A stretch of DNA of 39,727 bases, taken from IMG/VR virus record IMGVR_UViG_2778261268_000004; one strand, given 5' to 3'. Below, in pieces: positions 6,615 through 11,301 of the stretch (the stretch's first letter is position 1; the number at the start of each line of letters is the position of its first letter). The translations under genes were made by a program, and so were the position numbers. The stretch comes from a virus. Lineage: Duplodnaviria > Heunggongvirae > Uroviricota > Caudoviricetes. Below the pieces are notes generated by a model. The model made no database searches. It was not told the origin of the DNA and saw only the letters and a program-made list of their open reading frames with translations.

Positions 6615-7199
6615 TTATTGTTTGTTTTTTTCGTTCTGGCTGATGACAAATTCAATGTAACTTTCGATCTTTGCCTTCTCTGTTTCGGGTAACAATGCGT
6701 AGCGCGAGCGGTCATAGTTGATAGTCGCAGGGTCGTGCGGGTGAATCAGTAATTCATAGCCGTGACGCCCGAATGCGGATGCAACATTCTCCAGGGTGGA
6801 AATGGAAACGCTGACCTCATTGTTTAACAGGCGGCTGATTGTCACCTGGGCGACGCCGGATGCGCGGTGAAGTTTTCCCTGTGTTGAAAGGTCGCGGCTT
6901 TCGCTCATCCAGCGTTCCAGGTTGTGAGCCGCCAGCTGACCAATGTCGCTTGGGCCGACAGGCTGAAAACCTTCCTGAGAAAGCGAGCGATCGATATCAA
7001 GCCAGTTACGGGGTTTATTGGCGGCAGCTTCAATTTTTCGCGCAACCTGGTCGCCGATAACCTTCTTGCCAAGAGCCCAGCGGTTTACCAGATTTGCCTG
7101 AGTTCCAAGTTTTTCTGCCATCCGCGTCTGAACACCATTGAATTCACGGTCGATCAAGTCGTTGAGATTTTGCCTGCGGACGTCCTGGATACTTTTCAT
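6615..7199 (-). CDS. CI-like prophage repressor with two HTH (XRE-type) domains, no S24 peptidase domain
   Basis: Two HTH-like segments (QTRMAEKLGTQANLVNRW and GVAQVTISRLLNNEVSVS); divergent from a Cro-like gene; flanked by palindromic operators; terminator downstream. Confidence 0.7.
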   Translation of the reverse strand: MKSIQDVRRQNLNDLIDREFNGVQTRMAEKLGTQANLVNRWALGKKVIGDQVARKIEAAANKPRNWLDIDRSLSQEGFQPVGPSDIGQLAAHNLERWMSESRDLSTQGKLHRASGVAQVTISRLLNNEVSVSISTLENVASAFGRHGYELLIHPHDPATINYDRSRYALLPETEKAKIESYIEFVISQNEKNKQ

Positions 7200-7269: not shown

Positions 7270-7302
7270 ATGCACCCCATAGGTAACTATCCTTGATTTT
7301 TG

Positions 7303-7317
7303 TTACCTTATGGGTGA
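7303..7317. promoter_or_regulatory. Operator-like imperfect palindrome TTACC-ttatg-GGTGA (OR-like)
   Basis: Same divergent region; an isolated GGTAA half-site lies at 7282-7286. Confidence 0.5.
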
Positions 7318-7353
7318 ATATTTATTATCTGAAATAAATATCAGGCAATAGCT

Positions 7354-7584
7354 ATGAGCGATAACGGACATTTCGATTTCAAAAAGCACTGGCTTGCACT
7401 TACTCCGGATGAGCGTGAAGCCTTCGCACAGGAAGCCGGAACGACGAGTCACTATATCCAGACTCACTTAACAGGTAAGCGCAAAATGCCAGGTAAGGTA
7501 TTGATGAATGGGCTTTTTAAAGCCTGTAAAACAAGACAATGGCTGCGCTCAAAAGCAGAACTGGCATACTTCTTCTACTCATGA
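7354..7584 (+). CDS. Cro/YdaS-like small DNA-binding regulator
   Basis: 76-aa protein divergent from the repressor; HTH-like QEAGTTSHYIQTHLTGKRKM; terminator follows. Confidence 0.7.
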   Translation: MSDNGHFDFKKHWLALTPDEREAFAQEAGTTSHYIQTHLTGKRKMPGKVLMNGLFKACKTRQWLRSKAELAYFFYS

Positions 7585-7606
7585 TATCCAGCCACAACCC
7601 TCTGTA

Positions 7607-7628
7607 GACCGCCATCCGGCGGTCTTTT
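7607..7628 (+). terminator. Rho-independent terminator after the Cro-like gene
   Basis: GACCGCC-atcc-GGCGGTC followed by TTTT. Confidence 0.7.
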
Positions 7629-7734
7629 CATATCTATTCGCACCTCAAAGGTAATAAAAAACCAAATGTGGTTGATCTTTTTTTTGTGTCAGCACAAAAT
7701 GACCGTAATCCCAATACTAATAACAGGGCTTACC

Positions 7735-7935
7735 ATGGAAATCATTACACGTATTGATGCCGCAAAGCGCGGACTTAAACGCTATTACACCGGAAAACAA
7801 TGTAAGCACGGACATGACAGTGAACGCTGGGTTTACAACGGACACTGTGTTGAGTGCACCATGGAATCAAACCGTCGCATCAGGGCAGAGATTAAGCAGA
7901 TCATGATTAATTCCTCCCCACAACACTCAAGCTGA
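7735..7935 (+). CDS. Hypothetical small zinc-finger-like protein (start uncertain)
   Basis: CKHGH...CVEC pattern; track start ATG 7666 is part of the ATGTGGTT motif and lacks an RBS, so an internal ATG is preferred. Confidence 0.4.
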   Translation: MEIITRIDAAKRGLKRYYTGKQCKHGHDSERWVYNGHCVECTMESNRRIRAEIKQIMINSSPQHSS

Positions 7936-7950
7936 TAGCGGAGATTAATC

Positions 7951-8766
7951 ATGAGCAGACATGCAACAGATTGGGCCTGGGAGACAGATCCAGGCAGCTC
8001 ATCATTAAAGCTCATACTGCTCTCGATGGCTGACAGAGCCGATGAATATAACCTCTGCTACCCCAGCATAGAACGCCTAGTTAAAGACACTTGCCTGAAT
8101 AAAAAAACCGTGCAGGCCGGACTTATATCGCTCATGAAAATGGGGCTTATTTCAGATACCGGAGAGAGAAAGGGAGCGACGAAAAGAGTGCGGGTTTTCT
8201 CTCTTAATATAACCAAAAACGGGAACATTAAAGGCAACCGGGAAGGGGGTAATGAACCCAAAAACGGTAATGTTACCGAAAACGGGAATATACCCAAAAA
8301 CGGGATGTTGAATGATCCCAAAAACGGGATGTTGAATGATCCCAAAAACGGGATCCAGAACCAGTCATATAACCAGTCATTTAACCAAGAGAGGGAGAGC
8401 AGGACAAAAACCGGGGATTCTGTGCCTCATGACCCCGGCGCAAACAACGCTGTGATGAATAACTTTGTTCCTCCAGGTGGGCCAGGGCAATTAGGCAAAT
8501 TTGTCATGCATGAACAATGGCAGCCATCAGATGACTTTCTTCGGAAAAGCTCATTGCAGGGGATCTACCTGGACAGTCTGCCAACGGCACAGGAACTTGC
8601 AGAGTTCAGAATTTACTGGATGGCTGAGGGTAAGGCATACCATCAGGCACAGTGGGAGCAGAAGCTGGCAAGGCGGCTGCAGATTAGCAGACAGAAGCAA
8701 TCAACATTACCTGATAACAACGTTCCGCACTGGAACAGCCCTGAAGCGTGGGAGGATTTCTTGTGA
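7951..8766 (+). CDS. Replication initiator (O-like; N-terminal HTH, DnaT-like C-terminus) containing iterons
   Basis: N-terminal DWAWETDPGSSSLKLILLSMADRADEYNLCYPSIERL HTH pattern; internal direct repeats; followed by a P-like gene. Confidence 0.75.
   Translation: MSRHATDWAWETDPGSSSLKLILLSMADRADEYNLCYPSIERLVKDTCLNKKTVQAGLISLMKMGLISDTGERKGATKRVRVFSLNITKNGNIKGNREGGNEPKNGNVTENGNIPKNGMLNDPKNGMLNDPKNGIQNQSYNQSFNQERESRTKTGDSVPHDPGANNAVMNNFVPPGGPGQLGKFVMHEQWQPSDDFLRKSSLQGIYLDSLPTAQELAEFRIYWMAEGKAYHQAQWEQKLARRLQISRQKQSTLPDNNVPHWNSPEAWEDFL
8213..8382 (+). repeat. Iteron-like direct repeats inside the replication-initiator gene (candidate origin)
   Basis: CCAAAAACGG(G/T)A at 8213, 8258, 8294, 8318, 8342 including two exact 24-bp tandem units (8293-8316, 8317-8340); AACCAGTCAT x2 at 8361-8382. 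Confidence 0.6.
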
Positions 8767-9548
8767 ACAACGTTTTTACCGCGATACAAAACCGTGACGG
8801 AGAAGCCCTTTCTCGCATGTCAGGTTATGAGCATCAGTACGTCAACAATGACAATGTGGTGAACATGTCAGCAGAGAGGCTTGTTGATGCCCTTTTCAAA
8901 CAGCTGAAACAACTGTTTCCGGCGGCAGTGGTAACCAACCTGAAGACGCCAGAGCAGGAAGTTGCTGCAAAACAGCAGTGGATTGCTGCGTTTGCCGAAG
9001 GGGGGATCCGAACCCGTGAACAGGTTTCTGCTGGTATGCGCCACGCCCGCGCCAGTGAATCTCCGTTCTGGCCGTCGCCAGGGCAATTTATCAAGTGGTG
9101 CAAAGACAGCAAGATGGTTCTTGGCGTCACCATTGACGATGTGATGGCGGAGTTTCACCGGTACAGCAAGGAAAAAAGTTTATATCCTGGTGGTCCCGAA
9201 AGATTCCCGTGGCGGCATCCGGTTATGTACTGGGTCGTATGTGATACCCGCCGTGCAATGTATCAGCGCCAGCTTAGCGAGATTGAGGTTGAGAAACACG
9301 CGCGCCGGCTGCTCGATGATTGGGCGAAAAAGGTGGCTTCCGGACAGCAGATACCCGATCCGGTGATCAGCATACAGGCAAAGTCAGAGCCCATGAGTAC
9401 ACCTCCGGACACAGGGAGAGACGTTTACCATCCACCGGGGCGAAGTTTCGGGTGCATGCCTAACGCCGCCACCCTTGGGGGAATAACACCGGCGCAGTGG
9501 CTGATGGAGGAATACAGGCGGGGAAAGGCGGCAGGATTTATCAAGTAA
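8763..9548 (+). CDS. Replication protein P-like (helicase loader)
   Basis: QQWIAAFAEGGIRTREQVSAGMRHARASESPFWPSPGQFIKWC resembles lambda P; GTG start with GGAGG RBS overlapping the upstream stop. Confidence 0.7.
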   Translation: MNNVFTAIQNRDGEALSRMSGYEHQYVNNDNVVNMSAERLVDALFKQLKQLFPAAVVTNLKTPEQEVAAKQQWIAAFAEGGIRTREQVSAGMRHARASESPFWPSPGQFIKWCKDSKMVLGVTIDDVMAEFHRYSKEKSLYPGGPERFPWRHPVMYWVVCDTRRAMYQRQLSEIEVEKHARRLLDDWAKKVASGQQIPDPVISIQAKSEPMSTPPDTGRDVYHPPGRSFGCMPNAATLGGITPAQWLMEEYRRGKAAGFIK

Positions 9549-9585
9549 TACCAGCGCGATAGCGCATTTTTTTACGCCTCAACAA

Positions 9586-9600
9586 TTACCTATGAGGTAA
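9586..9600. promoter_or_regulatory. Operator-like palindrome TTACC-tatga-GGTAA
   Basis: Upstream of DUF1064-like gene. Confidence 0.5.
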
Positions 9601-10533: not shown

Positions 10534-10784
10534 GTAATTCAGCACGACTACAGCTTGGTTTTTCACCGCTATCAAAAACTATCATGCTGGCAAAAATGCG
10601 CGATGTTGAAGGTGGACGTATGCGCGTTGGCAATGATCCAGGTCGTGATGTTACCAATGAGGCTGCTCAATTGGTGTGGCGACTGGTCATGGCTGAAGGT
10701 GGTGAGATCGCGTGGGAGCTGGATGATGGTTCTCGCATGGTGTTGAAGGCAGAAAAACAGGAGGCAACCAGTGAGCAAGATTGA
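10530..10784 (+). CDS. Hypothetical phage protein
   Basis: Coupled ORF in nin-like block. Confidence 0.4.
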   Translation: MSNSARLQLGFSPLSKTIMLAKMRDVEGGRMRVGNDPGRDVTNEAAQLVWRLVMAEGGEIAWELDDGSRMVLKAEKQEATSEQD

Positions 10785-11301
10785 CTATCAGGTACTGCGT
10801 GAGGCAGCAGTAGCAATTGAAACAGTAGCAACGCCTCAAAAATTGCTGGCATTTCGTATGAAAGTCACACCTCAGGTTGTGCTGGCTCTACTGGATGAAC
10901 TGGAAGCCAAAGACAAAGCATGGTCCGCACAGGACAACCATATCAACCAGCAGGCTTACCGAATTGAATCGCTGGAAAAGAAGAATGGCGAGCTGGGAAG
11001 ATCGCTGGAAGCCGCAGAGAAGCGCATAGCAGAACTGGAAGCCGAACCTGTAAGCCAAACTTGCAAGTTGAACGAGCCATCGGGCAACTCTCCGGTAACT
11101 CCGGGTGGTTGGATAAGCTGTAGTGATCGAATGCCGAAAGGGTATGCTGATGTGTTAGTGACCGACGGCGAGCATGTCGAGGTTAAATGGTGGGATGAAT
11201 CTGGGTATTGGAATAGTTGGACGGAACTTAGCTCAGATATCCTTGCCCATGAAATAACTCACTGGATGCCGCTACCGGAGCCGCCGCAGGAGGCAAAATG
11301 A
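10771..11301 (+). CDS. DUF551-like protein with coiled-coil N-terminus
   Basis: C-terminal ...THWMPLPEPP signature. Confidence 0.55.
   Translation: MSKIDYQVLREAAVAIETVATPQKLLAFRMKVTPQVVLALLDELEAKDKAWSAQDNHINQQAYRIESLEKKNGELGRSLEAAEKRIAELEAEPVSQTCKLNEPSGNSPVTPGGWISCSDRMPKGYADVLVTDGEHVEVKWWDESGYWNSWTELSSDILAHEITHWMPLPEPPQEAK

Follow-up and report, generated by a model that had tools for sequence, protein, structure and literature searches.

The analyzed window, a stretch of 39,727 nucleotides from a virus of the Caudoviricetes (IMG/VR record IMGVR_UViG_2778261268_000004), contains an array of six short iterons inside the gene for a putative replication initiator (7951–8766, plus strand, an open reading frame (ORF) of 271 amino acids). 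This array is probably where the initiator binds within a phage replication origin that lies in the initiator gene itself, as that of phage lambda does. The origin reading is favored by the six copies together with their location, the lambda-P-family gene downstream, and the lambda-like design. The region 7300–9600 is 98% identical to the Escherichia phages vB_EcoP_PAS61, phiv142-3, and phiV10, which are epsilon15-like podophages of the genus Uetakevirus, and the initiator is 98% identical to phiV10 gp43, annotated as "replication initiation protein."

A search of the window for CCAAAAACGGGA with at most one mismatch gave six matches with starts at 8213, 8258, 8276, 8294, 8318, and 8342, every one of them on the plus strand within 8213–8353; 0.17 copies were expected by chance, and the maximum in 100 shuffles was 2. 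The initial annotation had listed five copies with a spacing of 45/36/24/24 bp. It had overlooked CCGAAAACGGGA at 8276, and with this extra copy the spacing is 45/18/18/24/24 bp. The exact 24-bp tandem units it described were recovered by Tandem Repeats Finder (8293–8354, period 24, 2.6 copies, 100% match, score 124). When extended to 16 nt, the iterons read TAACCAAAAACGGGAA (iteron 1, distal, 8210–8225), AACCCAAAAACGGTAA (iteron 2, 8255–8270), TTACCGAAAACGGGAA (iteron 3, 8273–8288), TACCCAAAAACGGGAT (iteron 4, 8291–8306), and twice ATCCCAAAAACGGGAT (iteron 5, 8315–8330, and iteron 6, proximal, 8339–8354). The last two are the best copies, with perfect dyad arms ATCCC/GGGAT around AAAAAC. No other iteron-like array was found in the window, the next best cluster of an exact 9-mer having three copies, and no DnaA box (≤1 mismatch) was present in 7600–9000.

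The array occupies the linker between two domains of the initiator, and the PKNG-type linker of the initial annotation, placed between a helix-turn-helix domain and a DnaT-like C-terminus, is thus found where it was expected. The N-terminal domain is a winged helix of the HTH_36 family (Pfam PF13730, residues 18–67, E 1.8e-10, 40.9 bits versus a gathering cut-off of 25); its coding part (residues 1–86, 7951–8208, plus strand) presumably specifies the reader of the iterons. The C-terminal domain (coding part 8500–8706, plus strand) belongs to the "DnaT DNA-binding domain" family (Pfam PF17948, residues 184–252, E 1.1e-15, 57.5 bits versus a cut-off of 25), and the repeat-encoded linker between the two reads NIPKNGMLNDPKNGMLNDPKNGIQNQSYNQSFNQ. 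The C-terminal 86 residues (180–265) align to residues 85–170 of Escherichia coli DnaT (E 6.5e-21, PDB 9zbt). All PDB matches (9zbt, 4ou6/4ou7, 2ru8) are confined to query residues 180–265, and the N-terminal half of DnaT (residues 1–84) has no counterpart among them. Homologues of the initiator appear in databases as "primosomal protein I" or "helix-turn-helix protein"; the former label holds a partial truth but is misleading, because an origin-binding winged helix replaces the N-terminal half of DnaT.

In Pfam, the initiator matched HTH_36 and DnaT only, with no match to Phage_rep_O (PF04492), which lambda O itself matches at 5.7e-36, and none to Rep_3. As judged from these matches, the initiator is outside the lambda O family, though the system appears to work like that of lambda. 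The helicase-loader gene lies directly 3′ of the initiator gene in the same operon (8763–9548, plus strand; Pfam Phage_lambda_P, E 1.5e-56), so that the two-domain initiator and the P-like gene of the initial annotation are both borne out by Pfam. The start of the loader gene is probably the GTG at 8763, which overlaps the initiator stop codon (GTGA); a 4-nt overlap of the two genes is also annotated in phiV10.

Repeats downstream of the iterons and the proposed origin

The last iteron is followed by three 12-mers of the form (G/T)AACCAGTCAT(A/T)n (8358–8393, plus strand; GAACCAGTCATA, TAACCAGTCATT, and TAACCAAGAGAG), a candidate unwinding or helicase-entry element. Both copies of AACCAGTCAT mentioned in the initial annotation were located (8359–8382), and a third, degenerate 12-mer, TAACCAAGAGAG at 8382–8393, has to be added; Tandem Repeats Finder reported a 12-bp unit at 8359–8387. 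A strand-asymmetric purine tract (8387–8417, plus strand, 27 of 31 purines) adjoins them; only 0.02% of the 31-nt windows of the phage are as extreme. The A+T-rich region of the lambda origin is likewise purine-asymmetric (PMC5043065). Across the relatives described below, purine asymmetry is not general.

The comparison set comprised six phages and 65 prophage loci with the same N-terminal domain at 36 to 87% identity. The prophage loci were drawn from bacterial contigs, with one genome per species, and their hosts include Enterobacterales, Vibrio, Pseudoalteromonas, Marinomonas, Acinetobacter, Desulfovibrionaceae, Sphingomonadales, and others. The 12-mers of the window proved to be the local form of a family-wide "GAAYC" repeat, found downstream of the final iteron at 62 of 72 loci versus 0.063 per kb elsewhere (both strands). 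The family pattern is (C/A)(A/G)GAAYC followed by two or three GAAYC-containing 12/13-mers. Their spacing is often 12 and then 13 nt, by which one DNA word is read in two frames within the same protein (N-L/N-Q, E-S/E-P), and Glu codons within the repeat are GAA in 27 of 27 cases versus 71% elsewhere. The 30 nt after the GAAYC repeats have a median A+T content of 77% in the relatives (94th within-locus percentile), giving in most of them the layout of iterons, short 12/13-mers, and A+T-rich tract. The same order is known from oriC, lambda, and iteron plasmids as the classical plan of an origin (PMC5043065).

The GAAYC element is kept where the iterons differ (Sphingobium L133, Desulfovibrionaceae L140 and L150, and L155). 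For this reason, it may act as a distinct, sequence-specific element and not simply as a stretch that melts easily; an anchor of single-stranded DNA for the initiator or a helicase-entry signal are possible roles.

From this anatomy and the comparison with known systems, initiation might proceed as follows. Initiator dimers would bind the six dyad iterons (8210–8354, consensus ATCCC-AAAAAC-GGGAT) via the N-terminal HTH_36 domain and form a bent nucleoprotein complex resembling the lambda O-some. Strain would pass to the three 12-mers and the purine tract (8358–8417), where the duplex would open; this is the weakest step. The DnaT-like domain would then hold single-stranded DNA, recruit the complex of the lambda-P-like loader and host DnaB, or both, and DnaB would be loaded, as homology to E. 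coli DnaT and lambda P suggests. The 12-mers and the purine tract are the best candidates for the opening site and, at the same time, the least secure part of the model.

Several results weigh against this assignment of the origin. We infer binding of the initiator to the iterons from their co-occurrence only. A marked A+T-rich or low-stability tract was not found beside the array in the window: the 12-mers have an A+T content of approximately 61%, the segment 8360–8400 reaches only the 88th percentile of instability, and 8400–8460 is unusually stable. The window by itself is uninformative on whether the iterons are independent of the reading frame, and the frame argument given below rests on the relatives. 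Among 48 near-identical alleles, polymorphic sites made up 9.0% of the iteron cores, 13% of the rest of the linker, and 9.8% of the N-terminal domain; the cores do not stand out clearly, and the diversity was too low for a distinction. An AlphaFold2 single-sequence model of the initiator was unusable (mean pLDDT 37). A profile comparison (hhalign) of the N-terminal domain with lambda O gave a nonsignificant probability of 3.3%; homology to lambda O was therefore discarded as a claim, and the likeness to lambda is one of design only.

The lack of a convincing unwinding element also lends weight to an alternative in which the iterons are initiator sites for autoregulation or copy control, acting as a transcriptional roadblock or by initiator titration, with the origin elsewhere or replication started by recombination. 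Plasmid iterons do act in copy control as well (PMC5043065), and in phiV10 a RecE/RecT-type fusion is annotated upstream of the repressor gene. We nevertheless regard this alternative as unlikely, as no other repeat array or DnaA box exists in or near the replication module, the array of the relatives consistently precedes GAAYC repeats and an A+T-rich tract in the classical origin layout, and design and position match the proven origin of lambda.

DNA site versus peptide repeat

The spacings in the window are all multiples of 3, and the six copies consequently share one reading frame; for this reason, the relatives were needed to decide between a DNA element and a peptide repeat. A purely protein-level explanation, namely a slippage-prone, low-complexity Asn/Gly/Lys/Pro linker whose DNA has no role, would fit the single frame and the observation that copy number moves in 24-bp (8-residue) steps among E. 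coli alleles. It would also fit lambda, where in-frame deletions in the origin part of O still complement, indicating that such linkers tolerate change (PMC6022878). The relatives make this explanation very improbable.

Within the 360 nt that follow the helix-turn-helix part, a generic CC-N6-GG motif with an A/T-rich center reached 9.2 per kb, versus 0.56 per kb elsewhere (16-fold, 70 loci). It was read in more than one frame in 30 of the 70 loci and in all three frames in Burkholderia phage Bcep176, which a constraint on the peptide does not account for. The bases flanking CC and GG were complementary in 145 and 127 of 211 cases, whereas the shuffle maxima were 114 and 96. The arms differ by lineage, with ATCCC/GGGAT, GTACC/GGTAC, GTCCC/GGGAC, and CCCCC/GGGGG, a palindromic co-variation that would be meaningless for a peptide.

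Codon usage was evaluated by locating P-x-x-G peptides at the protein level and reading the codons only afterwards. The Pro codon was CCC in 118 of 123 such peptides versus 147 of 870 (17%) elsewhere in the same ORFs, so its third position is virtually fixed, and the Gly codon was GGC in 1 of 123 versus 24% elsewhere. The encoded peptides themselves are radically variable (PKNG, PEIG, PENG, PNFG, PVFG, PNIG): K/E/N/D/V and N/I/F/S replace one another, with CC-N6-GG unchanged. Chemically unrelated middle residues are to be expected when only [AG]A[AT][AT][AT][CT] is required. Taken together, the reading frames, the co-variation of the arms, the codon bias, and the variable peptides show that it is the DNA that is constrained and that each site has dyad symmetry, as would be expected of a target for a winged-helix protein that binds as a dimer. 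The PKNG-repeat linker would then be largely a by-product of encoding DNA sites.

Two further features were observed within the array. Three GATC (Dam) sites at 8314, 8338, and 8352 fall within 40 bp, in or abutting the three proximal iterons (contexts ATGATCCC, ATGATCCC, and GGGATCC; window average 3.95 per kb). The context ATGATCCC is common to enterobacterial relatives and not found in those from Vibrio and Acinetobacter, and the cluster could be tied to methylation or SeqA control. A terminator scan of the minus strand gave three sites in 8265–8344 where the arms of neighboring iterons pair (GGGAT...ATCCC) next to a run of TTTTT; these antisense terminator-like sites are probably a by-product of the dyad iterons. 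The same pairing would also allow cruciforms or hairpins in the array.

Module exchange and copy-number variation

The repeats were found with the DNA-binding domain irrespective of what follows it. In the Uetakeviruses ZX5, TL-2011b, and HEMP4, Enterobacter phage Tyrion, and Klebsiella phages, the neighboring genes, the DnaT-like C-terminus, and the P-like gene are retained; the N-terminal domains of their initiators are unrelated, and these repeats are absent. Conversely, the N-terminal domain and the repeats occur with other C-termini in phages of Edwardsiella, Vibrio, Acinetobacter, and Burkholderia and in prophages of more than 60 species. In Edwardsiella phage GF-2 (locus L005, 1801–2643), the HTH_36 N-terminus, iterons, and GAAYC repeats are joined to a lambda-O-type C-terminus, and the sequence directly past the repeats, GAGAATTCTGACGAATCCTCAGAC, is nearly the one found to the right of the lambda origin (L011), GAGAATTCTGGCGAATCCTCTGAC. 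GF-2 thus appears to be a natural chimera with the crossover at the origin. Acinetobacter phages have a different C-terminus and an adjoining gene for a DnaB-like helicase, and many other C-terminal regions of the family have no Pfam match.

The presence of the repeats in HTH_36 loci whatever the C-terminus, and their absence from the DnaT-only relatives, indicate that they travel with the DNA-binding domain and not with the C-terminal one. The initial annotation had named repeat-free homologous initiators as a finding that would tell against an origin; with the two domains considered separately, this check speaks for the origin reading. The N-terminal-domain family counts 527 representatives of 50%-identity clusters (E ≤ 1e-10) from Gamma-, Alpha-, and Deltaproteobacteria, with the domain always at residues 1–86. 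HTH_36 was matched in 118 of 118 family representatives, the DnaT domain in 17.

The ZX5 and Tyrion initiators contain short repeats only and no comparable array, and their N-terminal domains have no Pfam match. The ZX5 gene (L002, 1127–1957) carries a perfect palindrome, GTAACGCTG/CAGCGTTAC, and several GTAACGC words in the linker; the Tyrion gene (L003, 1146–1913) carries three copies of GGATCAG(G) as well as GTACC inverted repeats. The origins of these two phages are not obvious.

That the array serves mainly as a recombination junction, its short conserved repeats promoting the exchange of N- and C-terminal initiator modules between phages, is the least credible alternative: module boundaries at or just after the array, the GF-2 junction, and the small share of DnaT C-termini agree with it, but dyad symmetry, arm co-variation, and multiple phased copies are left unexplained, and module exchange probably follows from the shared origin sequence rather than being what the array is for, although both roles can coexist.

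Copy number was evaluated in 80 viral contigs that are ≥99% identical and hence informative for copy number only. They contain four to nine iterons (mode 6; nine in contig L052) and one to three copies of AACCAGTCAT. Initiator length ranges from 263 residues (792-nt gene) to 311 residues in steps of 8, with protein clusters of 271, 279, 287, 291, and 311 residues; gains and losses of the 24-bp iteron unit account for the differences. A comparable difference exists between lambda with four iterons and Shiga toxin (Stx) phages with six (PMC7466680). Prophage copies of the initiator gene were found in 424 of 5,426 complete E. coli genomes, and the variation in iteron number accounts for the protein length polymorphism seen in E. 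coli genomes.

More tentatively, the window may belong to a large family of origins that has apparently not been described, a possibility to which we give well under even weight. Its three-part cassette in the linker of HTH_36 initiators would consist of dyad iterons, an invariant "CAGAAYC" junction with three GAAYC 12/13-mers, and an A+T-rich tract, the C-terminal domain being swapped freely. It would be a widespread family with a sequence-specific GAAYC element that is not known from lambda.

The literature found comprised work on lambda and Stx phages and a survey of Stx-phage replication units that records HTH_36 proteins and makes no mention of iterons (PMC8951638). No published description of the iterons studied here was found; older papers in subscription journals were outside the search, and a prior description is possible. 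The results provide a concrete candidate origin (approximately 8150–8450) for phages of the phiV10/epsilon15 type. They further suggest that an origin placed in the initiator linker, as in lambda, is found again in hundreds of prophage lineages whose initiators use an unrelated DNA-binding domain. The GAAYC repeat offers a simple signature for origin prediction in uncharacterized prophages, including the HTH_36-type replication units of some Stx phages.

Neighboring genes and comparison with known systems

Upstream of the initiator, the window contains a repressor-like gene (6615–7199, minus strand) and a small gene in the position of cro (7354–7584). They are followed by a strong intrinsic terminator (7606–7625, whole element 7606–7634; AGACCGCC-ATCC-GGCGGTCT and then TTTTC), which is also annotated in phiV10. 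Its location between the cro-position gene and the replication genes is that of lambda tR1 and implies antitermination control of the replication operon. A small ORF (7666–7935) lies directly 5′ of the initiator gene; gp42 of phiV10 is a shorter version of it (7729–7935), and its position is kept in phiV10, Tyrion, and a Klebsiella phage. The product has no Pfam match, and its CKHGH...CVEC spacing is suggestive of a zinc ribbon.

At the 5′ end of the initiator gene, a perfect 11-nt inverted repeat (7901–7954, TCATGATTAAT/ATTAATCATGA) has the start codon (7951) in its right arm. As RNA, it folds with −15.5 kcal/mol (z −2.8), which would sequester the initiator start and the ribosome-binding site and suggests that initiator translation is coupled to, or controlled by, the small upstream ORF. 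The helicase-loader gene is followed by a DUF1064 gene. Farther downstream, the sole other short-repeat cluster of the window, three copies of CTGGAAGCC within 300 nt (10751–11150), lies in the gene at 10771–11301, the middle of which looks like a coiled coil, and probably reflects a protein-level repeat.

The closest parallel to the candidate origin is that of lambda, whose record contains four iterons inside O (ATCCCTCAAAACGAGGGA, ATCCCCTAAAACGAGGGA, ATCCCTCAAATTGGGGGA, and ATCCCTCAAAACAGGGGG) with a spacing of 20/24/23 bp and codon phases of 0, 2, 2, and 1. In lambda, one O dimer binds to each iteron; the resulting complex is bent and opens an adjacent A+T-rich region of 39 to 40 bp, after which P bridges O and DnaB, and chaperones release the helicase (PMC6022878, PMC5043065). 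The resemblance to the lambda origin in O that the initial annotation had pointed out holds for several features. Both arrays lie inside the initiator gene, between the parts for the DNA-binding N-terminus and the C-terminus. Both use a TCCC...GGGA dyad with a central A-tract, ATCCCTCAAAACGAGGGA in lambda and ATCCCAAAAACGGGAT in the phage described here, at a spacing of approximately 18 to 24 bp. In both, a P-family helicase loader follows immediately and overlaps the initiator stop codon. The division of labor would likewise be that of lambda O, whose N-terminus reads the origin and whose C-terminus handles the helicase loader.

The differences concern the parts rather than the plan. The N-terminal domain belongs to HTH_36 instead of Phage_rep_O, and the C-terminal domain is DnaT-like and not O-like. 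The repeat unit is 14 to 16 bp compared with 18 to 19 bp, each arm being two base pairs shorter (ATCCC-AAAAAC-GGGAT versus ATCCCTC-AAAAC-GAGGGA in lambda). Six copies in one frame stand against four copies in three frames, and three 12-mers with a purine tract take the place of the A+T-rich tract of 39 to 40 bp. The Stx phages 933W and P27, with six iterons, are similar in that related phages differ in how many iterons their initiator genes contain, with linker residues gained for every additional iteron (PMC7466680); unlike the initiator described here, which uses a different DNA-binding family, theirs are true lambda O homologues with near-identical iterons.

The C-terminal PF17948 domain is shared with E. 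coli DnaT, the primosomal protein I of replication restart (structures 4OU6/4OU7 and 9ZBT), from which the initiator differs by the origin-binding winged helix in place of the N-terminal half. As in the iteron plasmids RK2, F, P1, and R6K and at the 13-mers of oriC, multiple putative initiator sites adjoin short 12/13-mers, the place of opening in those systems. Their initiators additionally make contact with a single strand once the region is open (PMC5043065), which may serve as a model for the GAAYC 12-mers. Plasmid iterons, however, are direct repeats in helical phase and usually lie outside the rep gene; the inverted-repeat units inside the gene set the array apart from an origin of the Rep_3/RepE/pi type with its direct repeats of 17 to 22 bp. 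The design principle is textbook knowledge, and the array, as read here, is an ordinary further example of a lambda-type origin.

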